Positions 3,911-49,647 of a DNA stretch of 64,000 bases are shown piece after piece (the first letter of the stretch is position 1; each line of letters opens with the position of its first letter). The stretch is taken from positions 1,963-65,962 of the forward strand of contig JBCCQH010000027.1 in the NCBI GenBank assembly GCA_039024435.1, written 5' to 3'. Below the pieces are notes generated by a model that saw only the letters and a list, made by a program, of their open reading frames with translations, did no database searches and was not told the DNA's origin. The stretch comes from Bacteroidota bacterium (GTDB lineage Bacteria; Bacteroidota; Bacteroidia; J057; JADKCL01). The position numbers and the translations under genes were made by a program.

Positions 3911-3942
3911 AAAACGGCCCCTCCCCGATGCGGCCGTTTTTT
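3911..3942 (+). terminator. rho-independent terminator after gdhA
   Basis: Stem ACGGCC (3914-3919) pairs with GGCCGT (3932-3937), followed by a T-run to 3942. Confidence 0.6.
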
Positions 3943-3965
3943 ATTGGTTAAATTTGTCCACAACC

Positions 3966-17765: not shown

Positions 17766-17777
17766 CCCGGAAGATAC

Positions 17778-17806
17778 AAAAAAAAGGGCCGACAAATTGC
17801 CGGCCC
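17778..17806 (-). terminator. rho-independent terminator after the YegP-like gene
   Basis: The minus strand reads GGGCCGGCAATTTGTCGGCCC followed by T8. Confidence 0.7.
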
Positions 17807-17824
17807 GGGTGGGTTTACTTGCGG

Positions 17825-25384: not shown

Positions 25385-25505
25385 AATTGCGGGGCTTTGC
25401 CTATCTTACGCCCTCCATCTTCATCGTTCAAGTTTTCCGAATCGGCGGGCAGTACGCCCGGCGGTCTCTCGGGCAAACCCAACCGACAATCGATACCGAC
25501 ACCTG

Positions 25506-28532: not shown

Positions 28533-28597
28533 CCTTTGCCCGGATGATTCCAACCCGCAATTTTAAATGATCGCTTAATCAACAAAACCCAAGTAAA

Positions 28598-29887: not shown

Positions 29888-30079
29888 ACAGTAAAATCGT
29901 TTATCGGCGGTCCGAGTGGGGACATTGCGCGACACCATGCGGCAGTTTGAAAATAGCATTAATCCCGAAGCGTGTTTATTCATTGCGGAACAATTGGCCC
30001 GGCCTGCCTCAACAGGAATACCAAAAATAACAAATCTCCGCAAATGCCCCAACAAAAGGGGAAATTGACGGGAAAAACG

Positions 30080-30137
30080 GATCACGCTTTCTTGGGGTCG
30101 ATCTGGATCTTTTCCGAAGATTGATCTACATTAGATC
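30080..30137. promoter_or_regulatory. cluster of five GATC sites (four as GATCT) in the divergent intergenic region at the island's left edge
   Basis: GATC at 30080, 30100, 30106, 30123 and 30134, i.e. five within 58 bp. The cluster lies 39-96 nt upstream of the ATG at 30176. Confidence 0.35.
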
Positions 30138-30175
30138 TATTCATTGCCTTTTCATTTAACTAAGGATTGATTGAC

Positions 30176-33448: not shown

Positions 33449-33650
33449 CTTTTTATCTCAAAAAAGCAAAATTTTGTTTCTCTCTGAACCTCTATTGATC
33501 TCTTCCGGAATATCCGCAATTCTGAGATAAAACGTGCGGTTTCCCCCCAAATTCTTGTCCGTGAACTTCTGATAATCCCAAAAAAATCTGGTGGTCTGCC
33601 GGATCCTTTTCCCGCTACTTGCCGGCAGTTAAACCACAAAAAATACCATT

Positions 33651-34079
33651 ATGTCTGACACGTATTCCATTTCCAACCACCAGCCCCAGTTCAATGCGGA
33701 CTTCAGCGAGTTGGAGATCCACAACCTCACCACGGGAACCATCGAAGAAACCTACGATCTCACCCAATCCACCAAAGTATCGGTCACCTCGGGCAATTAT
33801 GTCGTCGACCAAAATACCTGTACCGGGTGCTTCTCCCAATCTTTTGACGCGGACGAACAGGAAACGGTCTCGTTCAGCGGGGCCCGCATGGCCGGCGTGA
33901 CCATCATGCGACTGGAAGGAACGCTCAAGCCCCATTTAGAGTACGACTTTGATCTGGATGCCTGTCCGGTGTACCTGAAGTACGACGGCGACAAGCTCAA
34001 GGTCGAGGCCTCCCAGGACAGCGGTGGAGCCGGGTTTGATCCTTGCTGCGTGACCATTCGCCAGCTCACTTCTGCCTGA
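33651..34079 (+). CDS. hypothetical 142-aa protein, first gene of the pAgo operon
   Basis: ATG start, with the stop 6 nt before the next ATG. Beta-rich composition with several Cys (CTGC, DACP, DPCC). No family recognised. Confidence 0.5.
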   Translation: MSDTYSISNHQPQFNADFSELEIHNLTTGTIEETYDLTQSTKVSVTSGNYVVDQNTCTGCFSQSFDADEQETVSFSGARMAGVTIMRLEGTLKPHLEYDFDLDACPVYLKYDGDKLKVEASQDSGGAGFDPCCVTIRQLTSA

Positions 34080-34085
34080 TCGCCG

Positions 34086-35201
34086 ATGCTTCCGGAAAAT
34101 CCATCCTTGTCGACGATCTCGGAAGTGGCGGTTCTCCAGGTCCGCACCCCGGAGCACCCGGAGGAATTCCGCTCGGAATTCCCGGGCCTGGAGGCCGTCT
34201 TCCCGAACCCGGTCCGGGTCTATTGGCTGTTTCCGGAGATGGCGTCCCGCCCCCGGATCGCCCCGTTTTCCTGGCGGCACCTGACCATCCATCCGGTTCC
34301 CTTTCCGCGGGTGGATGCTCGGGTCCGCAGCGGGAACTGGGAGTGGCTGCAGGACCCTTTCCTGGTCGTTCCGGGAGACCGGCCCCGCTTCGTCATTCCC
34401 GCCCAAGCGACGGTCCAGGATCAACTGATCGTGACCGCGCTGGCCCGTGCCGCGGGCGCTTACGTGCGCATGGCCGGGACCTACTTTGAAGGGGGAAATC
34501 TGTTCTGGATGGGCCAGCACATCCTCGCCGGTCGCGATACCCTGCTGCACAATCCCGCACTCCTGGCGGAAGGCGACCTTTTCTCCACCCAGCGGCGAAT
34601 CGAAGCGGATTTCCGGCCGGCCGAGATCCACTGGATCGGGGATCACCTGACGCAGACCCGATCTCCCTGGCAGCCTTGTGGTGAGGCGGACAGCTTCCAA
34701 CCCTTTTTTCACCTGGATCTGTACGTGATGCCCGCCGGGAGAAACTTGCAAGGAAATGCCCGCGTTGCCGTGGCGGACCTGCCGGCCGATCTCACCGACG
34801 CCGATGGCGTCGCGGCGCAGGCGCTGGTCACCCGGTTGCGGCAGCAATTGGCCCGCACCGAGGAGCAAGTCCGCGCCTCGGCTGGCCCCGAGACCGAAGT
34901 GATCCGGGTACCCATGGTGCTGCGTTGCCACGCGTCCCAGCCCCGGGTGTTCTCCCCTTGCAATGGACTCTACGAATCCACCCCGGCGGGCGACCGGATC
35001 TTGCTTCCGGATTATGTCACCCACGCTCCGGTCCGCTACTGGCGACCGCGACTGAAAGCCCAAAAACGGCAGATTGAAGCCCTCTGGGAAGCCCGCGGGG
35101 CCAGCGTCCACTGGGTCACGGGAAACTATTTCGAGGACTCCGACAAGTGCGGGGCCTTGCACTGCCGCATCAAAATCATTCAACGTGTATCCACTTCCTG
35201 A
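34086..35201 (+). CDS. guanidino-group-modifying (pentein fold) enzyme-like protein, agmatine/peptidyl-arginine-deiminase-like
   Basis: The motif order matches the agmatine deiminase/PAD_porph layout: NWEWLQDPFLVV (W..D.GP-like), YFEGGNLFWMGQHILAGRDTLL (EGG...G), FFHLDLYV (H.D), SPCNGLY (SY.N-like), and C-terminal GALHCRIKI (GG..HC). Confidence 0.55.
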   Translation: MLPENPSLSTISEVAVLQVRTPEHPEEFRSEFPGLEAVFPNPVRVYWLFPEMASRPRIAPFSWRHLTIHPVPFPRVDARVRSGNWEWLQDPFLVVPGDRPRFVIPAQATVQDQLIVTALARAAGAYVRMAGTYFEGGNLFWMGQHILAGRDTLLHNPALLAEGDLFSTQRRIEADFRPAEIHWIGDHLTQTRSPWQPCGEADSFQPFFHLDLYVMPAGRNLQGNARVAVADLPADLTDADGVAAQALVTRLRQQLARTEEQVRASAGPETEVIRVPMVLRCHASQPRVFSPCNGLYESTPAGDRILLPDYVTHAPVRYWRPRLKAQKRQIEALWEARGASVHWVTGNYFEDSDKCGALHCRIKIIQRVSTS

Positions 35202-35203
35202 TT

Positions 35204-37054
35204 ATGAATTTGCAACAAAACTGGTTTCCCATTGTCTTCCGGGGAGATGCAATTCCCCTTTGGCAGACGGGACGGGCCAATGACCACAATGCTCCCACTC
35301 ACCGCACACTTCCAAACTGGACGGAAAATGGCAAGCAGTACTTCTGGCCCCCCGCTGGGCAGACGCTTCCCGAGGGAGGAACCCTCCAAAAACTCTCTCC
35401 GCACCTCATTCCGCAACTGACGGCGGAGATCGTCCGCTGGGCCTTGCTCCAGCTTCCCCATCCCGGTTTGGAGCGCGACGAGGACGAGATCATTTTTCCG
35501 CATCAAGGGTCCACCCTGCGCCTGGCGGTGATTCCTCCCGCCCCGCACAACACAGAATTCTGCCTGAGCATCCGCCCGGAAGATCCGCCCCCCGCCGCCA
35601 AAGAAGCTTACCGCCAAGTCCACGATGCCTTCGCCGTACTGGCGCAATCCCCCTTTACCAATGGTGCCGGCACAGAATTCACCCTGGAATCGGAGCGGGT
35701 GGAAGTCGAGTACCCCTCTTTTGCCCGCCCCCGACTCTATTTCCAGCCCAGCGGCATCGGCAATACCAATGACAAGTGGAAAGGCATCCTGAACAAAGGG
35801 CCCTTCAGCAAAGCCCACTTCCGCCACCGGGAACTGCACTGTCTGGTGATCGCCGGGGCCCGGGACGAGGGCGTGACCAAGCGGGCCCTCGGTGAACTGG
35901 AACGGGGGCTCCCGAGTGTGGACCACACCTCCGAGTTCCAGAGTCCATTCCCGAAAGGCTGGGCCGAACTCTTCCGGTTCAAAAGCTGGACCCCGTATTA
36001 CCTTTGGCTCCGCGGCCCCGCCGAGTGGGAGAATCTGGAACAACAGGTGCAGGAAGCGGTCCAGGCGCAGTGCCGGGAAGGACGGGAAGGCTTTGATCTG
36101 GCCTGGATCATGCCGCCGCGGGCCCATCGCAATGCGCCCCAGCTCATTGCCGGTGCGACGGCTACCCTGCTCGAATTTGGCATTCCGGCTCAGGTCTGGG
36201 ACCTGGATCCCTTCCGGCCCGGAGCCCCGCCCGGGAGCGCCGGCCAACGGCTGCGCGAACTCGCCCTCAAGAGCTACGTCAAGGTCGGGGGGATCCCCTG
36301 GCTGCTGCCGAGTGACCGGTCCAGCGACCGCCTCGTGGTCATCGGGGTGGGCAGCACCGAGCTTACGGAGGGTGTCGCTGGATTCTGCACCATTTTTGAA
36401 CGGGACGGGACCTTCCGCCTGGGCAATGCTTCGGCCCAGCCGAGCTTCCGGGACTGGCTGCGGGACCTGAGTGGTTTCGTCCGGGCCCAGGTGCGAAAAC
36501 TCGCCGATCAGGACAACTGGCAAGCGGGGGATCGGGTCGAGCTGGTCTTTCACCTTCCGGGGCCCGAATACTTCGGGCAGGTGGGCGCATTGCGGGAACA
36601 GTTGACCGGGGTGACCCTGGCCCAGTACCAGGTCTCGATGAGTTTTCTTGGGATCGACTACGCCCACCGGGACCGCCTCTGGGACTTGGAACGCCGGGGA
36701 CGGGGCGCAGAAAGCCGGGCCGCCTACATTCCCAAAATCGGTCAGGCCAGCATCGGCGGAGAAGAAGCCTGGTTGCAGTTGCGCGGAATCGAGCACGAGC
36801 GGGCCGAGGATCCCCCCTTGCGGATCTTGCTCCATCCCGACTCGGAAAACCTGGACCTCACCGAATTCACCCACCAGATATTCCGCTTTGCCGCCTTGTC
36901 CTGGCGCACCTACGGCCTGGAAGATCTGCCCGCGACGCTGGCCTACGGCAATGCCCTCACCGACCTGCTTTACCGCATCCACCAAGCGGGGCGCAGTACC
37001 GAGGTCGCCCGCGCCCTCCACAACTTTCCCCACCTCAAAACCTGGTTCCTATGA
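35204..37054 (+). CDS. short prokaryotic Argonaute (MID-PIWI), predicted catalytically inactive
   Basis: PIWI blocks: LKSYVKVGGIPWLL (36281-36301 encodes KVGGIPW), VVIGVGS, VFHLPGPEYFGQ, YAHRDRLWD, LPATLAYGNALTDL. The DEDX positions read G, L and N. The ATG lies 2 nt after the upstream stop. Confidence 0.8.
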   Translation: MNLQQNWFPIVFRGDAIPLWQTGRANDHNAPTHRTLPNWTENGKQYFWPPAGQTLPEGGTLQKLSPHLIPQLTAEIVRWALLQLPHPGLERDEDEIIFPHQGSTLRLAVIPPAPHNTEFCLSIRPEDPPPAAKEAYRQVHDAFAVLAQSPFTNGAGTEFTLESERVEVEYPSFARPRLYFQPSGIGNTNDKWKGILNKGPFSKAHFRHRELHCLVIAGARDEGVTKRALGELERGLPSVDHTSEFQSPFPKGWAELFRFKSWTPYYLWLRGPAEWENLEQQVQEAVQAQCREGREGFDLAWIMPPRAHRNAPQLIAGATATLLEFGIPAQVWDLDPFRPGAPPGSAGQRLRELALKSYVKVGGIPWLLPSDRSSDRLVVIGVGSTELTEGVAGFCTIFERDGTFRLGNASAQPSFRDWLRDLSGFVRAQVRKLADQDNWQAGDRVELVFHLPGPEYFGQVGALREQLTGVTLAQYQVSMSFLGIDYAHRDRLWDLERRGRGAESRAAYIPKIGQASIGGEEAWLQLRGIEHERAEDPPLRILLHPDSENLDLTEFTHQIFRFAALSWRTYGLEDLPATLAYGNALTDLLYRIHQAGRSTEVARALHNFPHLKTWFL

Positions 37055-38061
37055 TTTTGATCCCCGATTTTTTCGCCCGGACCGCGGTATTCTTGGAAGG
37101 AACCCATCCGGTGCAGCAAGCATTTCTCCACCATTTGTTCCCGGAATCGGTGCCCTTTCCCCACGCCACTGCCCCCGGCGCCATCAAAGGCAACAATGCC
37201 GACTACCCCAAAGTGGCCCTGCTCGGTTTCTGGTCCCTCTTCGCGCCGGAGTTTGCCGCGCGCTTTCGGGTGGCCTTCTCGCGCTACCGCTTCCGCAAGC
37301 TCGAAAGTGAGCACTACATCCTCGAAGATCTGGCCGCCCTGATCGGGATCTCCCAAGGTTTGCGGAAACACGGTGGCCCGGAAGACCACAAGTGGTGGAT
37401 CCGGCAAGTGGAACTCTGGCAACTGGCCTTTCCGGAAATGGAGGAAGTGCGGCAGTTCATCCGCTACCTCACCCAGGGAGGACTCCCGCCGGCCGGCCGC
37501 ATTTCACCGACCTACCTCGTCTACCTCGTGGTTCAGGAGCAGGACTGGAATCCGCAGTTTGCCGAGGTTGTGAGGCGATTTTACCTGCGCACCCGGAAGT
37601 TGCCGATGCCCGGGCCGGATGATCACTTTGGGCAAACGATGCTCAACCACTACGGTCTGGATGCCTGTTTCCGGCGCTGTATCTGGGAAGAAGACAAGAT
37701 CCTCACCTTGCAGCAAGCCGCGGTGGCCGGGGTTCACCACCGGGTAGAGGCCCGGGCCGTACGCCGGGCCAAGCGCCTGGTCGCCGCCGCTTACCTCCTG
37801 GGCATCCCCGGAATCGCGCTCTGCAACATCGCCTTCTTCTCGAATCTGGACGCGTTTGCCGAGTGGCGGAACCTTTGGGATGTCGCCGAAGACACCTTGC
37901 TTTTCGCCGGAGGCCCCTTTTCCGCCGCCTTGCTGTTCGTAAATGTGCTTTTGCAACTGGCGGGCCGCCACCCCCTTTCCCTCAAGTACGCCGGTCTGAC
38001 CCGGAGCCTGGCCGCCCGACTCACCAAACGGCACAAGCACCGCCTGGGCCTCGCCGGATAA
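37051..38061 (+). CDS. pAgo-associated protein with C-terminal two-TM hairpin
   Basis: ATGA overlap with the pAgo stop. The ~240-aa N-terminal domain is soluble. TM1 is LVAAAYLLGIPGIALCNIAFF (37777-37839) and TM2 is TLLFAGGPFSAALLFVNVLLQLA (37894-37962). The tail RLTKRHKHRLGLAG is basic. Confidence 0.6.
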   Translation: MILIPDFFARTAVFLEGTHPVQQAFLHHLFPESVPFPHATAPGAIKGNNADYPKVALLGFWSLFAPEFAARFRVAFSRYRFRKLESEHYILEDLAALIGISQGLRKHGGPEDHKWWIRQVELWQLAFPEMEEVRQFIRYLTQGGLPPAGRISPTYLVYLVVQEQDWNPQFAEVVRRFYLRTRKLPMPGPDDHFGQTMLNHYGLDACFRRCIWEEDKILTLQQAAVAGVHHRVEARAVRRAKRLVAAAYLLGIPGIALCNIAFFSNLDAFAEWRNLWDVAEDTLLFAGGPFSAALLFVNVLLQLAGRHPLSLKYAGLTRSLAARLTKRHKHRLGLAG

Positions 38062-38175: not shown

Positions 38176-39246
38176 ATGTCATTTACCGTTAAAACATTCA
38201 CTTTGAAGCCCTTGAGAGCCGAACAACGCGAACACTTGGTGCGTCCATTTATGCGCTGGGTCGGAGGAAAGCAACGATTGGTCGGACAGTTGTTGAATTA
38301 TCTCCCTCCGGAGGACACCTATTCCCGCTACTACGAATTGTTCCTCGGGGCTGGATCCTTGTTCCTGGCCCGGAACTTCCCCAATCCGGTCCTGAACGAC
38401 CTCAATTTCCACCTGATCAATACCTACCAGCAGGTGCGCTCCCGTCCGGAAGCGGTTCACCGTTTGATCACGGAGCACGCCCGCCAACTCACCCGGGACC
38501 ACCGCCGCAACTTCGGCGGAGATTGGGAAAACTACCGGGGCAAGCGGGGCCGAGGCTCCTACTACTACACGGTCCGGGATGCCTACAACGCCCACCTTGA
38601 ACTGCCGGACGATATTTTTGATCCCGAACGTCTGCGGCAGGCGGCGCGTTTCCTCTTCCTGATCCATTCCAATTACAACGGCCTCTTCCGCGTGAACCAG
38701 CGGGGCGCTTACAATGTCCCCTTCGGCAAAAAACTGACCCACGTGCCGGACCTGGAACAACTCAATCGGATCAGCGCCCGGCTCCAAAACGCCCGGCTCA
38801 CCAATCACAGCTTTGAAGAACTGGAACCGGAAATCGGGGCTGGCGCCTTTGTCTACCTGGATCCTCCGTACCCGGATTTGCAGCCCCAGGATCTTTTTCA
38901 CCAGACAAACCGGTCCCAGAAAGCTTCCTTTACCGCGTACAATGCCCCGCCTTTTGAAACTCCGGAACACCAACAACTCGCCGCTTTTGCCGACCGCATC
39001 CGCCGGCGTGGGGCCAAAGTCATGGTGTCTATCGTGGAGCCTTTTGGCGTCCACAAAGCGGATCCCCGTCGAACCATGTTGCGGGAGTGGTATCCCGAAG
39101 CCCACTGGTGCTACCACCGAACGAAGTTCAAGCGCACCCTCGGTCCCCGCAAGGATCCCCAATTGGTACACGAGCTCATTCTCACCTCCTACGAGACGAA
39201 AAAGTGCCGCCCCGGTCACAAACTCAAAAGAAACCGCCGAAAATGA
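38176..39246 (+). CDS. Dam-family (D12 class) N6-adenine DNA methyltransferase
   Basis: Contains RWVGGKQRL, ELFLGAGSLF, NDLNFHLINTY, FRVNQRGAYNVPFG, and YLDPPYP (DPPY at 38860-38871). Start chosen at the internal ATG at 38176. Confidence 0.85.
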   Translation: MSFTVKTFTLKPLRAEQREHLVRPFMRWVGGKQRLVGQLLNYLPPEDTYSRYYELFLGAGSLFLARNFPNPVLNDLNFHLINTYQQVRSRPEAVHRLITEHARQLTRDHRRNFGGDWENYRGKRGRGSYYYTVRDAYNAHLELPDDIFDPERLRQAARFLFLIHSNYNGLFRVNQRGAYNVPFGKKLTHVPDLEQLNRISARLQNARLTNHSFEELEPEIGAGAFVYLDPPYPDLQPQDLFHQTNRSQKASFTAYNAPPFETPEHQQLAAFADRIRRRGAKVMVSIVEPFGVHKADPRRTMLREWYPEAHWCYHRTKFKRTLGPRKDPQLVHELILTSYETKKCRPGHKLKRNRRK

Positions 39247-41774
39247 ACTACTGGAAATGGAACACCGCCCTCGGGGATTTCTTTTTCCGGAATTCCCGCA
39301 AAGGCCAGCGCATCCTGTTTTACCTGGACCGCAAACTCATCGACCGGATCGGACAGGAACAAGGTCTCCCCGGCTGGGAAGATTTCTGCGCCAGCGTCCG
39401 CCAGGGTCCGCTGGAAGCATCCTGGCCCCACTACCTGCCGGAACTCGTGCAAGTGTGGTCCGATGGTCCCGAGTTTCACTACCCCTTTTTCCTGAATGGG
39501 ATTGCGGCCCTCATCCTGGCCCACACCGAACGCCCGCATCCCGATATGGGCTATTATGAATCCCTGGCCCATTTCGGGAAGCACCACCTGCATTCCACTG
39601 CCGATGCCCGGTCTGTGGTCCCACCGCTGGTCAATGCCTTTGCCCACATCCGGGAGTGGTCGGAAGCCTGGCCGGAAGTCCCCGGAACCTTCATCGACGA
39701 ACCGATCCAGGAGTACCGCTACGTGGGCCGCATCCGCCACCACGCCCTGATCTCCCCGGCCGAACGCCGCAATCTCCACCTGATCTGGCGGGACCTCACC
39801 CTAGAACCGGGACAGGGTCCCCACCTCGAATGGCTGATCTATACGCTGGAGCAGCACCCCGAATCGGCGAGCTGGATTCCGGGAATGCTGACCTTGTTCG
39901 GGCACCGCAGTCCTGAGGTACGGAAGGTGGTCCACCACTGGCTGCTGGAAGAACTGCGCACTTGGGATGGCAGTGCCCCGCCGACGCCCCAGTTGTACGA
40001 GCCGCCTTTTGAGGAAGGATTTGCCCTGCGGATGTCTTGGAGTCGCCGGGTGGGGATGGGCCTGCGCTTGCACCACCCCGACTGGAGCGGAGAGGTAACC
40101 CTGCGCCGGAAAGAAGCCCAAATCACCCTGCAAATCGGGGCGGATGGCTGGTCCCGGAACTTTACCTTTCCCGGAGGTGGAATAAATTTTACCGCGGAGG
40201 CCCCGGAGATCCGGGTACAAATGATCCAGCCCGTCCCGCGGGAGCTGTCGGCGTCTGTGTTTTCCTACTACTACCCCGCCGATGCCCTGGGCACCCTGGG
40301 ATCGGATTACATCGGGCACGACCGGATGCTCCGGGAACGGCCGCTGCAGCACTGCTTTCCGGCGCGTGAGCTGGCGTCCTGGCGGCAGTGGGCAAAAGAA
40401 CACCGGGTAGAAAACTGGCGGGCAAAAGAAGCTCCGGCGGGATTTCCTCCCGGCTGGAAATTCTACGCTGCCGAGCAGATTCCCCCGCCGGAAACTTCTC
40501 CTGGCGCACACCTGCCCCGGGTTCGGCCCCCGGCTCCGCTGAGCAAAGTATTTCCGCTTTCGGCCGCGCACCGCACGCAACAGTGGCAGTATGCCGCGGA
40601 TGGTCGCCGCTTGTCGCCTCCGGAAAGTGGAATCGGCCATTTCTTCCTGGATGGAGTAGAGCACCGGTGCGTGGCAACTTGCGAATGGACCCTGGACCTC
40701 TCGGGCAAAGCGGATCCGCCCCCACCGGAAGCGGATCGGCTGGCCCCTCTGCTGGCGAAAAGGCAGGCGGTTATCCCCTTTCGGCAGTACTACGATCTAT
40801 TGCAAGCGATTGCGGCGGAGCGGGGCGAGTCCCTGGACACCGTCGAAGCGCGCTACTACCGGCGCCTGACGGCGGCTTTGGGGTATTTTTTCGAAGATTC
40901 CCCCCGGCAGCAATTGCAACTGGCCCCCCCGGCGTTTGCCCTGTTGCCGGACAATCACCACGCAATCCGGGCTTCGCTCACCGGGATCTGGACGGCGGAC
41001 TTGCGGAACATCGTGGTACAATGGTGCCAGGATCCGGCGCACGGACTTCAATTGGCGTGGGAGGAATCTACTGATCCCTACCTGCCCGCCGCCGGGTTCC
41101 TTACTTGTTTCCGCTTGGACTACCTGGTCGCCTTGCACGCCGAATTGGAGCGCCGCTTTCCGGGGGTGGTCGGTCGGTGGACCCCTTGTTCCTATTCCCA
41201 AGCCCTGATCGAACGGCTCACCGTGCCGCGCCACCGCGGCTGGTTCAGCGAAGCGGAGGGATTGCGGAAACAAGTGGGTTCACCGGAAGCCCATTTCCTT
41301 TCCCCGGAAGACTACCGCTTCATCCCCCAAACGGGCGCGCCCATCTTCCCGATGCTCACCCGCAGCTACCACGAATGGTACGGCTACCCGATTTATACCT
41401 GGTGGGAAAGTGAGCAACAAGGTCACGACTGCAACGGCAACTGGGCGGTTTGGCGGCTGCTCCACGCCCATGGGGTTCCGGTCCTGTTCTCGGATCACCG
41501 CTGGAGCGACCACCTGTTGCTTCCGGTCCACTTGCCGCTGCCGGCGCTGGTGCGGCGGGCCCTCACCATGGCTTCTGGACTTCCGGGGAGTCCGGAAACC
41601 CATCCGCTTCCCGGCGGGCCGGAGCTGACCTGGCAACGCTACCCCAACATTCGCTACCCGATTCGGCGCCACCTGCCGCGTTTGCTTCTGGGCGCCACCG
41701 GTGTTTCCGCCCCTGAGTCGTTTTTCCACCGTCTCCATCCCCAACCGCACAACCATGGACCAATTAATCAGTAA
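39243..41774 (+). CDS. hypothetical 843-aa protein (position-equivalent to Druantia DruH or DISARM DrmE; no motif recognised)
   Basis: ATGA overlap with the methyltransferase stop and a 20-nt overlap with the downstream helicase start. Composition is coding-like. No domain recognised by eye. Confidence 0.45.
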   Translation: MNYWKWNTALGDFFFRNSRKGQRILFYLDRKLIDRIGQEQGLPGWEDFCASVRQGPLEASWPHYLPELVQVWSDGPEFHYPFFLNGIAALILAHTERPHPDMGYYESLAHFGKHHLHSTADARSVVPPLVNAFAHIREWSEAWPEVPGTFIDEPIQEYRYVGRIRHHALISPAERRNLHLIWRDLTLEPGQGPHLEWLIYTLEQHPESASWIPGMLTLFGHRSPEVRKVVHHWLLEELRTWDGSAPPTPQLYEPPFEEGFALRMSWSRRVGMGLRLHHPDWSGEVTLRRKEAQITLQIGADGWSRNFTFPGGGINFTAEAPEIRVQMIQPVPRELSASVFSYYYPADALGTLGSDYIGHDRMLRERPLQHCFPARELASWRQWAKEHRVENWRAKEAPAGFPPGWKFYAAEQIPPPETSPGAHLPRVRPPAPLSKVFPLSAAHRTQQWQYAADGRRLSPPESGIGHFFLDGVEHRCVATCEWTLDLSGKADPPPPEADRLAPLLAKRQAVIPFRQYYDLLQAIAAERGESLDTVEARYYRRLTAALGYFFEDSPRQQLQLAPPAFALLPDNHHAIRASLTGIWTADLRNIVVQWCQDPAHGLQLAWEESTDPYLPAAGFLTCFRLDYLVALHAELERRFPGVVGRWTPCSYSQALIERLTVPRHRGWFSEAEGLRKQVGSPEAHFLSPEDYRFIPQTGAPIFPMLTRSYHEWYGYPIYTWWESEQQGHDCNGNWAVWRLLHAHGVPVLFSDHRWSDHLLLPVHLPLPALVRRALTMASGLPGSPETHPLPGGPELTWQRYPNIRYPIRRHLPRLLLGATGVSAPESFFHRLHPQPHNHGPINQ

Positions 41775-44700
41775 AGAACCGATTTCCGCTTTTGAAGCCA
41801 TCCGGGACAAATTCATCTTGTACCTGCAGACCGCTTACCGGACCCGCTTCCGGTCCCTCGAACAGGAAAAGGAAGCCCTGCTGAAGCAGGCGCCCAACCT
41901 GTTTCAGTGGCCCTATGTGGAATTACAGCCAGACTACGCTTCTTCGGGAAAAAAGATCCCTGAACTCAGCCTCGAAGATCTGCCCGCGCTGGGAGCGTTG
42001 CTGGACCGGTTCAAGCTTCTAGTGGGCGGCAATCTCTTTTCGAACAAATACGCCCTCTACACCCACCAGTACGAGATGCTGTGTACCGCCCTGAGCGGTC
42101 GCCACAGCCTGATCACCTCGGGCACGGGCTCCGGAAAAACCGAATCGTTTTTGCTGCCCCTGGTGGCCCAGTTGGTGAAGGAGTCGGGTCACTGGGGACC
42201 GATCAACCGCCACGAACTGGGGGACCGGTCCTGGTACGAGCAAGAAGGGGCAACGGCCCGGGCCCATCCCTACCGCGCCCACGAAACCCGTCCCGCCGCA
42301 GTCCGGGCCTTGGTGGTCTACCCGATGAATGCCTTGGTGGAAGACCAGCTCACCCGCCTGCGCAAGGCCCTGGACGGTCCCCGGGTGTGGGACATCTACG
42401 ACGATCCGGAAGGATTTGCCGGGAACCGCATCTACTTCGGACGCTACATCGGGCCGACGCCGGTCTCCGGAACCGAAGAGCCAGAAACCACCGGCGACTC
42501 TGGAGATGCTACCCGGCAGGTCAACCGCAAGTCAAAGTCATTTGCCAACCGCAGCCGCATCCAGGCGATGCGCAGCGATTACGAAAAGATCACGACTTTT
42601 CTCAGTCAGGAATTTATCCCCGAAACCCTGCGGGACGAGGACATCCAATTCACCGTGCCGGCTTTTCCCGAGTGCCGCCAGGGGGTGGAGCTTCCGGTCA
42701 GTGCAGAAATGCGCACCCGGTGGGACATGCAGGCCACGCCCCCCGATATCCTGATCACCAACTTTTCCATGTTGAGCATCATGCTGATGCGGGCGGTTGA
42801 AGCGCCGATCTGGTCCCAGACCCAGGCCTGGTTTCACGGGGAAGACCTCACGGACCGCGATGCGCTTTCCCGGGAAGTCGTCCTCCAGGACCGCATCTTC
42901 CACGTCATCATCGATGAGCTGCACTTGTACCGCAATTCCGAGGGCATGGAAGATGCGGCCCTGCTGCGGAGTCTGCTCCTGAGCCTCAACATGATCGATG
43001 CCGACGGCCAACTGCATCCCCGGGTCCGGATCCTCACCTCGAGTGCTTCCCTGGGCGACGGCCAAGAAACCCAAGACTTCCTCGCGAAGTTTTTTGGGGT
43101 ATTTGCCTCCGGAGAGGCGAAAACTCCGGCTTTTTCGGTCATCAACGGTGATTCGCGCCCATTTGACCGGGAGGTCCCCGCAACGATGCCCCACGCCGAA
43201 GAACTGGTGCGCCTGGCGGAACTGCCCGGATTTCCCGAGCCCGATCCCGGAGAGGTCGCGGATATTTTGCGGAAAATGGTCGCGTCGCCGGTGGATCACG
43301 CTGCTTCGGGTCCGGAATTGATTCGGATCTGGTACGCCGAACACCAACTGAAAGACCGCATCAAGGCGACCTTTCAACGGCATCCCCGACGGGAAGATGA
43401 GCCGGCGACCATTCCCCGGAGCGTAGAAGTGCTGGGTCAAAAGTGGTTTCCGAAGCTTGCTGATTTCGCAGCGATCAAGGCCCTGAAGGCATTTTTCTAC
43501 CTCCGGGGACGCCTGCACGACCGCGAATACCCCAGCCTGCGGTTCCACTACTTCTTCAAGTTCATCCAGGGACTTTGGGCGGAAGCCCAACCCAATCGCG
43601 GGACCAAGCCCGAACCGGGCCACCACCTCAAGGAGCAGAAGCCGGTCGGGCAACTCTCCTACACCCCGCGCCAACTGGCCCCGGGGAGCAACAACCGGAT
43701 GTTTGACTTTTTGCGCTGCGAAGTCTGCGGTACGGTATTCCTCGGCGGACAAAAGAAATACATCTCCCCGAACAACCACGCCGAGTGCCAGGTCACCATT
43801 TCCAGTCCCGATCTCGAAAGCCCCCTGGGCAATCTCCCCACGATATCCCGCCAAAACTACCTCGATTACGCAGTGTTTTGGCCATTTTCGGATGCCCTCG
43901 ACGATGAGGTCGATTCCCAAAAGCCCTACCTCAAGCGGGACATCCCCATGGACTGGAACCAGCGGATCCCCAACTCGGGCAAGCGCGACCGGGGCACCTG
44001 GGTAAAGGCCAGCCTCAATACCGAGCTGGGGATCCTAAGCGAGGGCACAGCAATCGGCGATGCGTACGCCAATGGCTACTGGTTCCAAGTGCGACGCATA
44101 AAGAATGGGGCGCTCGTCCACCAGCGGGATCCTATGAAAATAGCACTGCACGCTGCCTTGCCCAACGCCTGTCCCTGTTGCAAGCAGAATTGGGGCAATC
44201 GCCAGTTTGTGAAATCTCCCATCCGGTCTTTTCGCACGGGTTTTGGCAAGATGAATCAGGTTTTGCTCAAGGAGCTGGCCTACCAGCTCGACCACGATCC
44301 CGACCAGGGACACTTCCGCAAGCTGGTGGCCTTTTCCGACTCCCGGGAAGATGCAGCCCGCCTGGCGTTTGACATCGAAAACCAGCATTTTCTGAATGTG
44401 GTGGAGGAGTACATGATGGAAATCTTCCAGCACCACCGGAAGGAAGAACAGGTAGAAGAAGAGCAGTTGCGCGGCATCCGCAAGCGGCAAATCGAGATGC
44501 TGGACCGCCTGCAGCGGGAGGAGGATGGCCCGGAAATCAAGGAATGGGCGCAAGCAAATCCCGACGCCTACCGGGAGGTCGCACAACTCCACAATTGGAG
44601 CAAAAGTTTCCTCGAAGAAGAGCAGGCCCAAGCCCAAGCCCAACGGGAAAAGTGGCAGCGCAAGGTGGATGGGCCCATTGAAGAGGTGCGGGTGGTGCCG

Positions 44701-47700
44701 GCCTGGAAATTGCTGGGCAAAGCGGGCAATACCACCGAGATGGGGCTGCTGATCGTGCGCTTGCTCCAGAAGGGAATCAATCCCGCCGGGGCCGATTCCC
44801 ACGCCCAGTTCCACCAGGGATTTCCCTGGTATGAGTTCCTGAAAGTGGACCTCAGCAACGAACAGTTTGCCTGGAAAACCCCCGAGGAGATGGACCTGCG
44901 CACCGGGGAGGAGGACGTGATTCAGGAGTTTCAAAAAAAGGTCATCCGCAAACTGCGCGACTCGATCAGCGATGTGTTCTTCTCGAAGTTGGTGTACAGC
45001 CTGGAAGCGGCGGGGCAGGGCTATGCCTGCGTAAAGGCCGATCCGGATGAGCTGGAAACACATTTCCAAAGCTACGGCGACACGAAGGTGGCGGGCGAAT
45101 TGCTGTATCAGTTTCTCAATGCGACGATCCGGGTGCTGGGCAACAATTTCAAGTACGAGATGGCAAGTTCGCGCTACGCACCGAATGTCCTGCCTTTTGA
45201 TGCGCAAAACGATTGGGGCAAACAGGTGGAACGTTACCTGGCGCAGGCGGCGGAGGTGCTGCAAGTGGAAGATCCCCGGGTGCTGAAGCAGTTCTTTCTC
45301 GACCAGGCCCGGAAACAAAAAGTGCTCAAGGAATACCGCCCTTCTCGGGAAGGCTCCCAGGCGGGGGAAAGTTCGGGCTACTTGCTCTCACCGGATGACC
45401 TGCACCTGTACCTGGCCGAGCCACCGGATCCGGTGTGGCGTTGCGGCAAGTGCCAGCGCGATCACTTGCACCCATCGGCGGGGGTCTGTACGTTTTGTTT
45501 TTCGCCCTTGGCGGCGGAGCCCACTCCCGAACTCAGCAGCCGCAAGCTGGCGGTGCAGAATTACATTTCCCATCCCATCGTCCACCGGCGGGAGCCCATC
45601 CGAATCCACTGCGAAGAATTGAGTGGGCAAACCGACGATCCCACCGCCCGCCAGATCGAGTTCAAGGGGGTCTTTCCGGAGGAGAACGAGCAAAAGTACC
45701 GGGTGGCGCGGCAGTTCCGGGAGATCGACGTGCTCAGCGTGACCACCACCATGGAAGTCGGGGTGGACATCGGGTCGCTGCAGGCGGTGTACCAGGCAAA
45801 TATGCCGCCGACCCGCTACAACTACCAGCAGCGTGTGGGCCGCGGCGGGCGCAGTGGACAGGCGTTCAGTGTGGCCTTGACGCTGTGCCGGGGACGCAGC
45901 CACGACCAGTACTATTTTGAAAATGGCCTGCACCGCATCACCGGAGATCCCGCGCCGCCGCCCAAGTTGTCTTTTCGCTACGAAGTCATTCGCCGGAGCA
46001 TCACCAAGCACGTCCTGCGCCTGGCGTTTGCTCACCTGAAGACGGAGCACGAAGTCGCGCTGTCGTCCTCCCACAAGGACATGCACGGCGAGTTTGGCAG
46101 CCTGGGCGATTGGGTGGGAGGCACCAATTTCGTCGAGCAGTTGCGCGCCTGGTTGGGCGGTGACCGCTGTACCGGCGAAGTCCGCAAGATGTGGAAGGCG
46201 CTGGTCCCCCCGGATTCTGACCTCACGGACAAGGTGGGCGACTACCTGAACTGGCTCCGCTACGCGGAAAGCGGCTTGGTCGACCAGATCGATCAGGCCA
46301 TTCGCAAAGACCTGGATATTCAACCCCACGAAACCCTCCAGGACCTCCGACGGGAGAACCAGCCCAAGGGACAGCTTCGTTTGTCCGAGCGCCTGTCCGA
46401 GTATGGTTTCCTCCCCGCCTACGGCATGCCGAGCAACGTGCGGAGCTTTTTTCACGGGAGTAAAAAAGGGGAGATGCTATCGATTGATCGGGACCTCGAA
46501 CTGGCGATATTTGAGTTTTCGCCCGGTGCAGTGCGCACCAAGGACAAGGCCGAGTACCAGGTCGCGGGCCTCAGCTACCCGATGTACTTCGGCAAACAAC
46601 GGAAGCGAAACCAATACCCCTTTCTCCCCGCTGATCCCAATGATCGCTCGGCGATCATCGACCAGATCAATGCTTTTCCGGTGATGCGCTGCAAGGAATG
46701 CGGCAAAATCCACGGGCGCGCGGAAATCGAGGCCCAGGAATACGCCTGCGATTGTGGCCGCACCGATGAGGCAAGCCATTTTGACGACTTCACGATTGTC
46801 ATTCCCAAGGCGTTCCGGGCGACCTATCTCGGCACCCAAAATGGCAAAACGGTCAAGCAGGAAGATTCCCGGTTTGCCTCGGCGGGATCGGTGACCATTG
46901 CCCAACCGCACAACCTGGAGGAGGTGCCACTGCTGGAGCAAAATGTCAAGCTGGAATTTTCCGACAGCCACCGGGAGCACCCCAGTTTTGTCTGGAAACT
47001 CAACACCAATGGCGGCAACTACTTCCGGGGCCACCTGTACGATGACGGTGAACTGGTCAATCAGTGGTTCCCGGAAAATATGCAACCCAGATCGGCCCAA
47101 CTGAGCAAAGAAAAAGCCCCGGAAAACATCGCTTTGGGAATGAAGAAGGTGACCGATTTGTTGTTCATTTCGCCGCGGGAGATTCCCGCGGGACTCAAGT
47201 TGCAGCCTCCCGGCAAAACCGAGGATCCGCAAGTCATTGCCCTCAATACGGCCCGGCAGGCGGCGGTCCTCTCCGGAGCGTACATCCTGCAGAAGGTGTT
47301 TGCCGAGCGGATGGACATTGCCCCGGAGGAGATCGAGATTCCCCAATTGGATTTTGACGGCGCGCATCCCCGGATTGTGCTGGCGGACAAGCTCGCCAAT
47401 GGGGCCGGCTTCGTCGCCGAGCTCAAGGACAACTTTGGGCGGATCCTCACCGCGGCGATCGATGCCGGGCCGGGGACTTTTCTCAGTCATGCATTGGCGC
47501 ACGCCACGGGGCCCGATGCATGTGTTTCGAGTTGTCCGCAGTGCTTGCAGACCTACCTCAACCGGCAGGTCCACCACTTGCTGGACTGGCGGCTGGGGAT
47601 TTCTTATCTGCGCTTGCTGGCCCAAGGCGAGAAATTTGATGCCCACCTGGGGTTTGCTTCGTGGGAGAACGAAGCGTATCCCGAAATCACCGACTATTTC

Positions 47701-47994
47701 CGCCTGGCGGATGAATTTGCCGAGCGCATCGTCAAGTGGACCCACGAAAGCTACGCCCGGGTGGAGCAAGCGGGCCTGCACCTGCCGGTGCTTCTCAGCA
47801 AGGGCCCAGGGTTGCCGCGGGCCATCTTGTTGGTGCATCCGTTTTGGGATTTGGACCGTCCGGGGGAGGTGCTTGAGGGGGCGATTCAGCTTGCGCTGGA
47901 CCACACGGAGAAGCGGGCGCACTTGCGGTTTTTGGACGTGTTCAATCTGGTGCGCCGCCCGGCTTGGGTCAAGCAGTTCCTGATCGATGATTGA
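41755..47994 (+). CDS. 2079-aa SF2 (DEAD/DEAH-like) helicase with C-terminal DUF1998-like zinc domain; DruE-like or fused DrmA-DrmB-like
   Basis: Motif I TSGTGSGKTE (42121-42141), motif II IIDELHLY (DELH at 42913-42924), SSASLG, motifs V/VI VTTTMEVGVDIG ... QQRVGRGGRSGQ. Several Cys4 ribbons are present (CEVCG, CPCC, CGKC..CTFC, CKECG..CDCG). The C-terminal CVSSCPQCLQTYLNRQVHHLLDW is DUF1998-like. Confidence 0.75.
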   Translation: MDQLISKEPISAFEAIRDKFILYLQTAYRTRFRSLEQEKEALLKQAPNLFQWPYVELQPDYASSGKKIPELSLEDLPALGALLDRFKLLVGGNLFSNKYALYTHQYEMLCTALSGRHSLITSGTGSGKTESFLLPLVAQLVKESGHWGPINRHELGDRSWYEQEGATARAHPYRAHETRPAAVRALVVYPMNALVEDQLTRLRKALDGPRVWDIYDDPEGFAGNRIYFGRYIGPTPVSGTEEPETTGDSGDATRQVNRKSKSFANRSRIQAMRSDYEKITTFLSQEFIPETLRDEDIQFTVPAFPECRQGVELPVSAEMRTRWDMQATPPDILITNFSMLSIMLMRAVEAPIWSQTQAWFHGEDLTDRDALSREVVLQDRIFHVIIDELHLYRNSEGMEDAALLRSLLLSLNMIDADGQLHPRVRILTSSASLGDGQETQDFLAKFFGVFASGEAKTPAFSVINGDSRPFDREVPATMPHAEELVRLAELPGFPEPDPGEVADILRKMVASPVDHAASGPELIRIWYAEHQLKDRIKATFQRHPRREDEPATIPRSVEVLGQKWFPKLADFAAIKALKAFFYLRGRLHDREYPSLRFHYFFKFIQGLWAEAQPNRGTKPEPGHHLKEQKPVGQLSYTPRQLAPGSNNRMFDFLRCEVCGTVFLGGQKKYISPNNHAECQVTISSPDLESPLGNLPTISRQNYLDYAVFWPFSDALDDEVDSQKPYLKRDIPMDWNQRIPNSGKRDRGTWVKASLNTELGILSEGTAIGDAYANGYWFQVRRIKNGALVHQRDPMKIALHAALPNACPCCKQNWGNRQFVKSPIRSFRTGFGKMNQVLLKELAYQLDHDPDQGHFRKLVAFSDSREDAARLAFDIENQHFLNVVEEYMMEIFQHHRKEEQVEEEQLRGIRKRQIEMLDRLQREEDGPEIKEWAQANPDAYREVAQLHNWSKSFLEEEQAQAQAQREKWQRKVDGPIEEVRVVPAWKLLGKAGNTTEMGLLIVRLLQKGINPAGADSHAQFHQGFPWYEFLKVDLSNEQFAWKTPEEMDLRTGEEDVIQEFQKKVIRKLRDSISDVFFSKLVYSLEAAGQGYACVKADPDELETHFQSYGDTKVAGELLYQFLNATIRVLGNNFKYEMASSRYAPNVLPFDAQNDWGKQVERYLAQAAEVLQVEDPRVLKQFFLDQARKQKVLKEYRPSREGSQAGESSGYLLSPDDLHLYLAEPPDPVWRCGKCQRDHLHPSAGVCTFCFSPLAAEPTPELSSRKLAVQNYISHPIVHRREPIRIHCEELSGQTDDPTARQIEFKGVFPEENEQKYRVARQFREIDVLSVTTTMEVGVDIGSLQAVYQANMPPTRYNYQQRVGRGGRSGQAFSVALTLCRGRSHDQYYFENGLHRITGDPAPPPKLSFRYEVIRRSITKHVLRLAFAHLKTEHEVALSSSHKDMHGEFGSLGDWVGGTNFVEQLRAWLGGDRCTGEVRKMWKALVPPDSDLTDKVGDYLNWLRYAESGLVDQIDQAIRKDLDIQPHETLQDLRRENQPKGQLRLSERLSEYGFLPAYGMPSNVRSFFHGSKKGEMLSIDRDLELAIFEFSPGAVRTKDKAEYQVAGLSYPMYFGKQRKRNQYPFLPADPNDRSAIIDQINAFPVMRCKECGKIHGRAEIEAQEYACDCGRTDEASHFDDFTIVIPKAFRATYLGTQNGKTVKQEDSRFASAGSVTIAQPHNLEEVPLLEQNVKLEFSDSHREHPSFVWKLNTNGGNYFRGHLYDDGELVNQWFPENMQPRSAQLSKEKAPENIALGMKKVTDLLFISPREIPAGLKLQPPGKTEDPQVIALNTARQAAVLSGAYILQKVFAERMDIAPEEIEIPQLDFDGAHPRIVLADKLANGAGFVAELKDNFGRILTAAIDAGPGTFLSHALAHATGPDACVSSCPQCLQTYLNRQVHHLLDWRLGISYLRLLAQGEKFDAHLGFASWENEAYPEITDYFRLADEFAERIVKWTHESYARVEQAGLHLPVLLSKGPGLPRAILLVHPFWDLDRPGEVLEGAIQLALDHTEKRAHLRFLDVFNLVRRPAWVKQFLIDD

Positions 47995-48945
47995 TCATTC
48001 CAGGAGGCCGTCGAGCAGCAGTTCGCGGTAGGTGCGGCCATTTTCTGTATGAACCCAAGACCGAGGTCCGGCAGTCTGGCGACCTAGAACGGTAGAAGAG
48101 GCCGCACTTGTGGAACTAAAGACGACATCTTCGGTGAATCGGTAGTGTTTTCCATCTCGTACTACCAACCCTTCGAGCATGAGCTTTTCCCGCAGCCGGA
48201 TCCAGTTGGCACCAATCGACTTTGAGACGCCGTATTTCATCTGTGAGCCCTTGGTTACGACGATGTGGCCGTCTTTGATGTACATGAATGCTTTGAGTCT
48301 GGTCGACTTTATCCGGTACAGGTCTACCGCTTGCTGAATGGGCGACTCCTCTTTCTTCGAAGGAGGTGTCACAGGGTCAGGAGCAGGTTCTTTTTCCGGC
48401 GAAGGCGCACTTTCCTGATTCGGAGCGGTAAGTAGTACGGTCGGATTGGTAAACTCAAACCCCAACAGCGGAAGCAATATCTGCATGTTGCCCAGAAAGT
48501 CGTTCATGCTGTAGCGTTTGCCTTCCGACATGGGCGGCGCTTTGGAGTCTTGTTTGTTTTCGACTTCGGAGGTTTTGTTGTCGTGGGCGAGTTTGATCAA
48601 ACGGTGTTCCAGGTACTTGATGCTGTTGATGTTGAGCAGGGTATCGGTGCTGGTAAAGGCCACAAAAGCATCAAAGGAGCGCCGAGAGCTTTTCGCCAGA
48701 TGGGTCCGCAAACGGTCCCGCAAAGTGCCCGATTGCCCGATGTAAACGCGTTCGGTAAAAGCGTGTCTCTGAGGGGGAGATTTCAATATGTAGACCCCCG
48801 GACGGTCAAATTCGGCGCGTTTCAGGATTTCCCCGGCCCGTTCCACCGGCGAATAGGTCGCCCGGCCCACCCAACTGGTGATCAAGGCCGTCTTAGGACC
48901 TTCCGGAGTTCCGTCCAAAAGCAGCATTTCAATCTCTTTGGCCAT
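47995..48945 (-). CDS. GIY-YIG nuclease domain protein with DUF4357-like C-terminal domain
   Basis: Internal ATG at 48945 (MAKEIEMLLLDG). GIY-YIG motifs: GVYILK ... RVYIGQSGTLRDRLRTH ... YLEHRL. C-terminus: FMYIKDGHIVVTKGS ... FSSTSAASSTVLG. The longer 514-aa ORF extension was rejected. Confidence 0.68.
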   Translation of the reverse strand: MAKEIEMLLLDGTPEGPKTALITSWVGRATYSPVERAGEILKRAEFDRPGVYILKSPPQRHAFTERVYIGQSGTLRDRLRTHLAKSSRRSFDAFVAFTSTDTLLNINSIKYLEHRLIKLAHDNKTSEVENKQDSKAPPMSEGKRYSMNDFLGNMQILLPLLGFEFTNPTVLLTAPNQESAPSPEKEPAPDPVTPPSKKEESPIQQAVDLYRIKSTRLKAFMYIKDGHIVVTKGSQMKYGVSKSIGANWIRLREKLMLEGLVVRDGKHYRFTEDVVFSSTSAASSTVLGRQTAGPRSWVHTENGRTYRELLLDGLLE

Positions 48946-49230
48946 CGCTATACCCTCACAATTTTGCCCTAAATATACAATTTGTCGAATTAATTCATTG
49001 GCGGGTGCTTTGCACGGACGGATGGCACTTTTGCCTGAGAGACCGGGATAGTCCAAACTTTGCTCAGTTGTCGTCTTTTCATGGATTAACTGCCCAATTC
49101 TCAAGCAGTCGTACCGAGAAAGCTGGGGCTGATTCATCGCAACTGCGATGCCGAGGGCGCGTTTTCGGTCGATGATTGGGGACGGAACAATTGCATTGCG
49201 CGGCGGTGGCGGAGCGCGTAAATTATCGGC

Positions 49231-49647
49231 ATGCCATTCCCTTCGTCCACTTCCCGAATCGAGGCATACCCACCCCAAAAAGAAAACCGGGGGACCCGAT
49301 TCCTCCGGATCGCGCTGTACGTGCTGATTGTTCCGCCCCTGGCGTGGACCGCCAGCCTCTTTGCGCTGTATTGCCACGCCGCTTACCTGCTGGGCCATTT
49401 TCCGCACTACAACTTCCCCGACCCCGAACAATTGTTTATTTACGACAGCTATGCCCCGGTCGTAGATTCGGCATTTTCCGTTTGGTTCCTGAGTTTTATT
49501 CCCTGGCTGATTTTGCTGATCACTGCAATTGCCCTCCACTACCGGCGGACCAGTCGGGTGGCGCTACCCATCCTGCTCGGTGGGATCGCTCGGTGCCTAG
49601 CGGTTGGGATTGCCCTGTCGGAAATATTTACCTGGTACGGCGCTTGA
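49231..49647 (+). CDS. hypothetical small membrane protein (3-4 TM)
   Basis: Hydrophobic segments IALYVLIVPPLAWTASLFALY, FSVWFLSFIPWLILLITAIAL and LPILLGGIARCLAVGIAL. Confidence 0.5.
   Translation: MPFPSSTSRIEAYPPQKENRGTRFLRIALYVLIVPPLAWTASLFALYCHAAYLLGHFPHYNFPDPEQLFIYDSYAPVVDSAFSVWFLSFIPWLILLITAIALHYRRTSRVALPILLGGIARCLAVGIALSEIFTWYGA

Follow-up and report, generated by a model that had tools for sequence, protein, structure and literature searches.

What kind of defense system is built from an adenine methylase, an 843-residue protein, and a 2,079-residue helicase? The question is raised by three consecutive plus-strand genes in a 64,000-nucleotide stretch of contig JBCCQH010000027.1, from a Bacteroidota bacterium; we refer to this whole stretch, whose source is a marine metagenome, as the window. 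A first-pass annotation, made from the sequence without database searches, had proposed that the three genes form either a Druantia-like module or a fused DISARM-like one. We found that the trio is, by the families of its proteins, a Druantia module of the type II/IV family with a predicted anti-phage role. The trio also does not appear to be free-standing: as judged by gene order and content, it is half of a fixed eight-gene array, and the other half includes an inactive Argonaute.

The three open reading frames (ORFs) have exactly the coordinates and lengths that were first given for them, and both of their overlaps (ATGA at 39243–39246 and 20 nucleotides at 41755–41774) can be read directly in the sequence. 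ORFs of 843 and 2,079 codons with family-level matches to hidden Markov models (HMMs) are far beyond chance. We refer to the genes as M, FL, and DruE:

38176..39246, plus strand: M, a D12 methylase of 356 amino acids (Pfam, NCBIfam, and PADLOC)
39243..41774, plus strand: FL, a DruF-DruL fusion of 843 amino acids (PADLOC and hhalign)
41755..47994, plus strand: DruE, a superfamily 2 (SF2) helicase of 2,079 amino acids (PADLOC and Pfam)

The Druantia genes and their relatives

The assignment to Druantia, which had been proposed from the size of the giant protein and its motifs, is borne out by profile comparisons. The DruE2 model of PADLOC matches this protein from end to end (1404 bits over residues 7–2074), as does the DruE4 model (1233 bits). 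The DruE1 and DruE3 models reach 544 and 275 bits, and these two models, along with those for DrmA, DpdJ, and BrxH, match the helicase only locally. Pfam places DEAD and Helicase_C domains in the protein and an MZB domain (MrfA-type, zinc-binding) at its C terminus; these domains, and MethyltransfD12 in M, were confirmed by scans against Pfam and NCBIfam. The motifs that it had quoted are also present and are kept across 10–13 homologues. In the helicase, we find GSGKT (K128), DELH (D387–H390), and QRVGRGGR, and the CPQC...LLDW block lies within the Pfam match to MZB/DUF1998. Across 13 homologues, helicase motifs I, II, III, V, and VI and the CxxC motif are invariant or nearly so. Pfam recognized no nuclease domain in DruE, including PLD. 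Overall, these comparisons identify the giant protein as a full-length DruE of the type II/IV branch, which is predicted to be a YprA-family SF2 helicase, rather than a DISARM protein or an MrfA/Lhr helicase.

The 843-residue protein had been described as similar in size to DruH. It has no match to DruH in PADLOC and none to any family in Pfam, and it is instead DruF fused to DruL. Residues 1–245 match the DruF4 model of PADLOC (2.7e-20) and residues 709–780 match DruL4 (4.6e-9), so that DruL is the C-terminal half of the FL polypeptide and has no gene of its own. We used hhalign to compare a profile of the FL family with stand-alone DruF and DruL proteins from two canonical Druantia loci. The match to DruF had a probability of 99.5% (E = 2.7e-23, 445 columns) and the match to DruL had a probability of 97.1% (E = 6.3e-11, covering DruL positions 4–311 of 336). 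In the other direction, the FL family HMM matches DruF and DruL in loci L008 and L009, where they are separate genes (we number the homologous loci with an L). Because the protein is DruF plus DruL, types II and IV of Druantia, and not type III, are the frame of reference for the trio. The fusion itself is already known. The DruF2 models of PADLOC are about 1,010–1,030 amino acids long, and one of them (PDLC00016) has a DruL-like C terminus and represents the fused form; also, locus L094 encodes a DruF-DruL fusion of 944 amino acids.

Word-indexed searches with the FL protein and with the alignment of its family found just two and four proteins, respectively, and an exhaustive HMMER search found 73 homologues. 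Using these 73 sequences, we obtained an AlphaFold (AF2) model of FL with a predicted local distance difference test (pLDDT) of 85.7 and a predicted template modeling score of 0.72. Foldseek found no match for this model in PDB or BFVD at E ≤ 0.001. Local structural matches to a SUI1-like region of about 90 residues had E > 0.1 and were disregarded.

The third protein, M, matches MethyltransfD12 in Pfam (1.9e-39; 136 bits versus a cutoff of 22) and the dam family TIGR00571 in NCBIfam (181 bits versus a cutoff of 115). Against the E. coli Dam equivalog (NF008152), it scores 108 bits, where the cutoff is 441. Its best matches in PADLOC are to generic MTase_II models (5.4e-59) and to orphan methyltransferase models. 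No DruM model of PADLOC matches M; in L008 and L009, by contrast, the methylases match DruM2 at 458–579 bits. Among solved structures, the ones nearest to M are those of DpnM, E. coli Dam, and T4 Dam. M has the motifs RWVGGK, FLGAGS, and DPPY, and all 10 of the complete loci that we identified (see below) retain FxGxG and DPPY. We conclude that M is a predicted Dam-family (D12, alpha-group) N6-adenine DNA methyltransferase that takes the place of DruM.

Some neighbors of the array bear on the specificity of M. Directly after DruE in L006, a minus-strand gene (16223–17005) encodes a protein with a PLD-like nuclease domain and a DpnI_C domain, and L002 contains a homologue of this protein (17376–18011, minus strand; 28% identity, domains not scanned). 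DpnI_C is a winged helix that reads GmATC. M is probably not specific for GATC, because the enzyme with PLD and DpnI_C domains would be self-lethal if M made GmATC, so the target of M is probably another motif. In L005 (16261–17112) and L091 (9145–10002), a second, paralogous D12 methylase is encoded directly downstream of DruE.

The closest canonical relatives of the trio are in three loci:

L008, 3335–14870: canonical Druantia locus with DruF4 and DruL4 matches
L009, 5442–17641: canonical Druantia locus with DruF4 and DruL4 matches
L094, 6594–16945: canonical Druantia locus with DruF4 and DruL4 matches

These loci encode DruF (with DruL), DruE, DruK, and DruM of the C5 class, and no Argonaute. 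The operons take one of two forms: DruF-DruL-DruE-DruK-DruM(C5), sometimes with Vsr, or FL-DruE-DruK-DruM. Their DruE proteins are 32–35% identical to the window's (34% from end to end for L008 and L009) and are about 1,920–2,046 amino acids long, and Vsr is often encoded downstream of DruE. PADLOC defines type IV by DruF, DruL, and DruE. The window's clade resembles type IV in that its DruE is homologous from end to end, in its DruF-plus-DruL partner, and in having a methylase embedded in the operon. It differs in four linked ways. The type IV relatives have DruK, and often Vsr, and the window's clade has neither. Their methylase is a C5 enzyme (DruM2, 458–579 bits) encoded downstream, instead of a D12 adenine methylase encoded upstream. 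The DruE of the window's clade is longer by about 130–160 amino acids. Finally, the type IV relatives lack the five-gene Argonaute cassette described below. As for DruK, a PD-(D/E)xK nuclease, blastp and tblastn found no match in seven loci of the clade and PADLOC found no DruK among the window's genes; we conclude that DruK has apparently been lost from this clade.

Doron et al. (2018) reportedly defined type II as DruM-DruF-DruG-DruE. The trio is like type II in combining a methylase, DruF, and DruE, and the best DruE model for the window is DruE2. However, the type II methylase is a cytosine C5 enzyme and M is an adenine D12 enzyme, and PADLOC found no DruG among 13 ORFs scanned in the window. 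In L008, L009, and L094, the type IV models DruF4 and DruL4 were matched together with DruM2, and the DruE proteins have nearly equal scores with the DruE2 and DruE4 HMMs. At the level of these profiles, the published boundary between types II and IV looks blurred.

The Argonaute cassette and the eight-gene array

The first-pass annotation did not include five conserved genes that lie just upstream of the trio (31943–38061), one of which encodes an Argonaute, and it did not mention the absence of DruK. We refer to the five genes as A to E:

31943..33448, minus strand: A, 501 amino acids, no detectable family; divergent from B, with 135–238 nucleotides between them across loci
33651..34079, plus strand: B, 142 amino acids, first gene of the plus-strand run; present in 10 of 10 loci
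34086..35201, plus strand: C, 371 amino acids, probable pentein-fold enzyme (invariant motifs and weak profile matches)
35204..37054, plus strand: D, 616 amino acids, predicted inactive Argonaute of the long-B type with MID and PIWI domains (PADLOC pAgo_II, 1e-64)
37051..38061, plus strand: E, 336 amino acids, predicted Argonaute-associated effector, similar to bAgaM (Aga_Helical-REase match and hydropathy)

The array as a whole is thus A, transcribed divergently, followed by B-C-D-E-M-FL-DruE, and the trio is its 3' half. We identified 10 complete loci (the window, L001, L002, L003, L005, L006, L007, L090, L092, and L093), and all eight genes are present in one order in every one of them, with DruE proteins that are 37–64% identical. 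(L091 is incomplete because the end of the contig cuts the locus.) The HMMs for the eight genes were built from seven of the loci, and in the three that did not contribute to them (L090, L092, and L093) they recovered the full set of eight. The only close homologue of FL is on a contig that has the trio with five size-matched genes ahead of it. When homologues are ranked by identity, every complete locus whose DruE is at least 37% identical to the window's carries the array.

The loci differ strongly from one another: minimum pairwise identities across the array's genes are 18–37%, and the Argonautes are 20–51% identical. The GC content ranges from 47% to 57% (seven loci measured), and the visible flanks have no housekeeping genes in common. 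The genes have diverged together. When the pairwise identities of each gene are compared with those of DruE, the Mantel correlations are 0.95 (D), 0.94 (FL), 0.92 (M), 0.91 (E), 0.86 (C), 0.78 (A), and 0.72 (B), with p ≤ 0.0005 for all genes. The genes are also tightly packed, with junctions of -44 to +24 nucleotides apart from E-to-M (10–203 nucleotides). D and E overlap by 4 nucleotides in all 10 loci, and M and FL overlap by either 4 or 23 nucleotides in all 10. In L007 and L090, the gap between E and M is just 10–12 nucleotides, so in these two loci B to DruE probably form a single transcript.

The array is rare. Homologues of DruE form 19 clusters at 90% identity and those of FL form about a dozen clusters at 50% identity. 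A scan of 185,579 species-representative genomes found one metagenome-assembled genome. A metagenome scan with the Argonaute alignment found only ordinary long-B prokaryotic Argonautes (pAgos), at 29% identity or less. Searches of plasmids with tblastn yielded no match to FL and only distant pAgos, and scans of viral contigs with FL and C found nothing. Within the window's clade, we found no example of either half alone. Among 80 unrelated loci with long-B pAgos, an E-like gene follows the pAgo in 10 and one has a weak, distant match to the DruE profile; A, B, C, M, and FL are absent from all 80.

D aligns with the solved long-B Argonautes EcAgo (PDB entry 23wq; 3e-64) and RsAgo (3e-63) over the L2, MID, and PIWI regions, with profile positions 144–613 aligned to chain positions 261–731. 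The catalytic positions of PIWI are substituted, as they are in long-B pAgos: D has GVGS and YGN there, and RDG lacks conservation. D has 616 amino acids, versus 731–778 for the EcAgo and RsAgo chains of known structure, and about 120 residues from the N-terminal end (the N/PAZ region) are missing. The start of D at 35204 was set by alignment with homologues; the ORF is open from a GTG at 35147. We conclude that D is an N-terminally truncated Argonaute of the long-B type that is predicted to be catalytically inactive.

The N-terminal region of E, and no other part of it, matches the Aga_Helical-REase models of PADLOC (7.6e-6 in the window and down to 7.6e-11 in L003), which we take to represent the bAgaN-type family. 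The C-terminal part has two hydropathy peaks (at least 1.6 in a 19-residue window) near residues 240–265 and 280–303, and both are found in all seven of the proteins that we tested; these segments are predicted from hydropathy. E therefore seems to combine an N-terminal helical domain that would dock to the Argonaute with two predicted transmembrane segments, which is the arrangement of BPAM. Elsewhere, beside an ordinary long-B Argonaute in L021 (7184–8533), the domain that is fused to an Aga helical adaptor is a CHAT protease (3.3e-17) and not a nuclease. This fusion looks like another effector swap.

BPAM systems consist of a long-B pAgo and a transmembrane effector, bAgaM (PMC10620215). 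In the related EcBPAN system, whose structure is 23wq, EcAgo is guided by RNA to its target DNA, and once bound it recruits the effector via the effector's N-terminal domain (PMC13535254). The cassette resembles BPAM in that D has the MID and PIWI domains without catalytic residues, and E has a helical N-terminal domain with two transmembrane segments. It differs from BPAM in that D is shorter at its N terminus, A, B, and C are additional, and the Druantia genes always follow in the window's clade.

A has no match in Pfam, PADLOC, or PDB, and B has none in Pfam or PADLOC. Across 10 sequences, C has four invariant motifs: W87-x-Q-D90, F134-x-G-G-N138, H209-x-D211, and G-A-L-H-C360. We take these to follow the same order as the catalytic motifs in two kinds of enzymes of the pentein superfamily, agmatine deiminases and peptidyl-arginine deiminases. 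Profile matches are weak (E values of 0.005–0.5; for instance, 0.005 for PDB entry 1xkn and 0.14 for 6b10), and three members match PAD_porph in Pfam at 0.02–0.15, which is below Pfam's cutoffs. An AF2 model of C from its single sequence was unusable (pLDDT of 34). C is probably a pentein-fold enzyme similar to agmatine or peptidyl-arginine deiminases.

One system or two, and other explanations

How might the two halves work? As a model, M would methylate adenines in a motif of the host and so mark self DNA. A complex of FL and DruE would engage unmarked or replicating foreign DNA, and DruE would translocate on the invader's DNA and unwind it using ATP, by analogy with the DruE of type III, a helicase that acts on forked or single-stranded DNA (10.64898/2026.05.13.724313). 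With DruK lost, killing would pass to the Argonaute cassette: D would recognize the invader's nucleic acid through complementarity to a guide and would recruit E through the helical domain, and activation of the membrane effector E, and possibly also of C, would result in abortive infection. This model draws on analogies with type III DruE, with Druantia systems that include a methylase, with the logic of DISARM, and with BPAM and EcBPAN. The motifs of M and of the helicase are predicted to be active.

On balance, we infer that the Druantia and Argonaute halves are functionally coupled and cooperate as one unit. At the least, they are two layers of defense that are obligatorily inherited together. 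A more specific version is that the halves form an integrated machine in which FL and DruE unwind non-self duplex DNA and hand single-stranded target, or precursors of guides, to the Argonaute; we put this forward tentatively. If so, the output of the Druantia sensor would now be the Argonaute cassette, in place of the DruK nuclease.

The leading alternative is that two autonomous systems, a type II/IV Druantia variant and a BPAM-like Argonaute, travel together as a single cassette of a defense island and act independently or additively, without a molecular hand-off between them. Stand-alone relatives do exist for both halves, and there is precedent for conserved arrays of several systems in Zorya II-Druantia III-ARMADA II (PMC12458937). 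The E-to-M gap of 55–203 nucleotides in 8 of the 10 loci also fits with two separate systems. However, one gene order is kept in 10 of 10 loci, despite unrelated flanks and minimum identities of 18–37%. Neither half was found alone within the clade, the loss of DruK coincides with the linkage to the Argonaute, and the short E-to-M gap in L007 and L090 implies one transcript. We consider independent action to be possible, and rather unlikely.

Several observations count against cooperation of the halves. The first is that autonomous relatives of both halves are found in other loci: the Argonaute cassette has them in D-E pairs, and the trio has them in sets of DruF/L, DruE, DruK, and DruM. Second, given the wider E-to-M gap in most loci, the two halves may use separate promoters; our scan for promoters and terminators performed no better than on shuffled sequences. 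Third, the D proteins of the window's subclade lack two of the four residues of the pocket that binds the guide's 5' phosphate. Near residues 312–317, D has I and T aligned to the Y and K of the PYIHTK motif of RsAgo, which we take to be Y463 and K467 of this pocket. The aligned Q and K further along are kept in D, and the YxxxK pattern is kept in L003 and L005. Binding of guides by D in the window's subclade may therefore be impaired or altered. Fourth, a gene for a GIY-YIG/DUF4357 protein is beside the array in 6 of the 10 loci. This protein could be the nuclease that replaced DruK, and coupling to the Argonaute would then be unnecessary. Finally, the comparison draws on few cases, namely 10 complete loci and about 19 clusters of DruE. 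The metagenome and plasmid scans yielded no member of the D clade, and we found no RNA-seq run that holds the locus.

The other alternatives concern the identity of the trio. M might be an orphan or an ordinary Dam-type enzyme, regulatory or from another restriction-modification system, and not a component of Druantia. Its best matches in PADLOC, which are to generic and orphan models and not to DruM, and its nearest structures, Dam and DpnM, would be consistent with this. Against it, M is found in 10 of 10 loci, its stop codon overlaps the start of FL by 4 or 23 nucleotides, and it has diverged along with DruE (r = 0.92). The canonical relatives also carry a methylase (DruM) inside the operon, and no restriction endonuclease that could partner with M was recognized among the array's genes. 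That M is a linked component, as was first supposed, is well supported, and we consider an orphan to be very unlikely.

The first-pass annotation had left open a DISARM-like module with fused DrmA and DrmB. DISARM does share a YprA-family helicase, DUF1998, and a methylase with the trio, which suggests a methylation-aware logic, and PADLOC reports local DrmA matches (32–34 bits; for example, 33 bits and 3e-9). These are confined to about 90 residues in the C-terminal domain that is generic to helicases, versus 1404 bits for a full-length DruE, and the helicase falls in the DruE branch. PADLOC has no match for DrmB, DrmC, DrmD, DrmE, or DrmMI/MII. In particular, the absence of PLD (DrmC) and SNF2 (DrmD) genes was noted at the outset and still holds for the 13 ORFs that we scanned (29360–53801). 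With DruF/DruL as the partner protein, DISARM is refuted at the level of sequence families and is highly improbable.

It is just as improbable that the trio is a type III Druantia (DruH and DruE) with an added methylase. As in type III, a large protein without a known family is encoded ahead of DruE, and the YprA-family core of the helicase is shared. In type III, however, the partner is DruH and DruE carries a PLD nuclease domain, and the window's array has neither; it has a methylase and a DruF/DruL partner, and the DruE3 models reach at most 275 bits, in pieces, versus 1404 for DruE2. The profile comparisons thus refute type III. The weakest alternative, a housekeeping repair helicase of the MrfA/Lhr type, would explain the MZB domain and some weak local matches to DEAH and Lhr-type models in NCBIfam, but these repair and RNA helicase matches fall well short of the models' cutoffs (58 bits versus 874 in one case), the DruE match is full-length, and the gene is in a defense island beside an Argonaute and PDC-S14; by these scores it is refuted, with a negligible probability.

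Flanking genes and implications for Druantia and Argonaute systems

The gene that adjoins DruE on its downstream side, and its homologues in five other loci, are as follows:

47995..49539, minus strand: GIY-YIG and DUF4357 protein of 514 amino acids, PADLOC candidate PDC-S14 (PDC-S14, 2.6e-72; DUF4357, 6e-15)
L002, 16247–17187: PDC-S14 homologue, split into two ORFs
L003, 1–231: PDC-S14 homologue
L007, 16231–16627: PDC-S14 homologue
L092, 17100–18482: PDC-S14 homologue
L093, 16159–17427: PDC-S14 homologue

The side and the orientation of these genes relative to the array vary. The GIY-YIG match in the window's protein (0.003; 18.2 bits) is under the Pfam cutoff of 22.6.

To the left of A, the window encodes a DUF6119 protein of 553 amino acids (30167–31828, plus strand; 1.8e-30) that has a weak match to pAgo_I in PADLOC (2e-4). 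A DUF6119 protein is found in this position in the three most closely related loci, which are the window, L001 (1124–2704), and L002 (at its left end). Further to the left are a leucine-rich repeat protein (29360–30085, minus strand) and, at 13786–17828 and 25326–29353, hybrid two-component sensors (a histidine kinase with Reg_prop and Y_Y_Y domains, and a HisKA-HATPase-receiver-AraC protein) along with a LytTR regulator. Such hybrid sensors and LytTR regulators are typical of Bacteroidota, and the flanking sensor kinases suggest a host from this phylum. We found no integrase or resolvase genes, tRNAs, or flanking direct repeats around the window's array. In L094, a tyrosine integrase and a resolvase (382–4137) are beside the canonical FL-DruE-DruK-DruM set, which suggests that this set is carried on a mobile element.

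Full-text literature searches found no paper that links Druantia with Argonaute or that describes a D12 methylase in Druantia. Nor did our literature searches find a mechanistic or experimental paper on Druantia types II or IV; a mechanism is available for type III alone. These results point to an array that is built from known families, and to an eight-gene unit that has no description in the literature that we searched. With the classifiers now in use, the array would probably be called as two systems, partial or unrelated, and the unit would be missed.

The clade can be viewed as a natural experiment in which the nuclease is gone, the class of the methylase has been swapped, and an Argonaute cassette has been added. 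The sensing part (the methylase, DruF-L, and DruE) is thereby separated from the killing part. A deiminase-like enzyme and two proteins without a recognized family join the list of Argonaute-associated genes. The array also bears on how guide-loaded Argonautes, which are unable to open duplex DNA, reach the DNA of an invader: a direct candidate for opening the duplex is a helicase whose gene is locked to that of an Argonaute.

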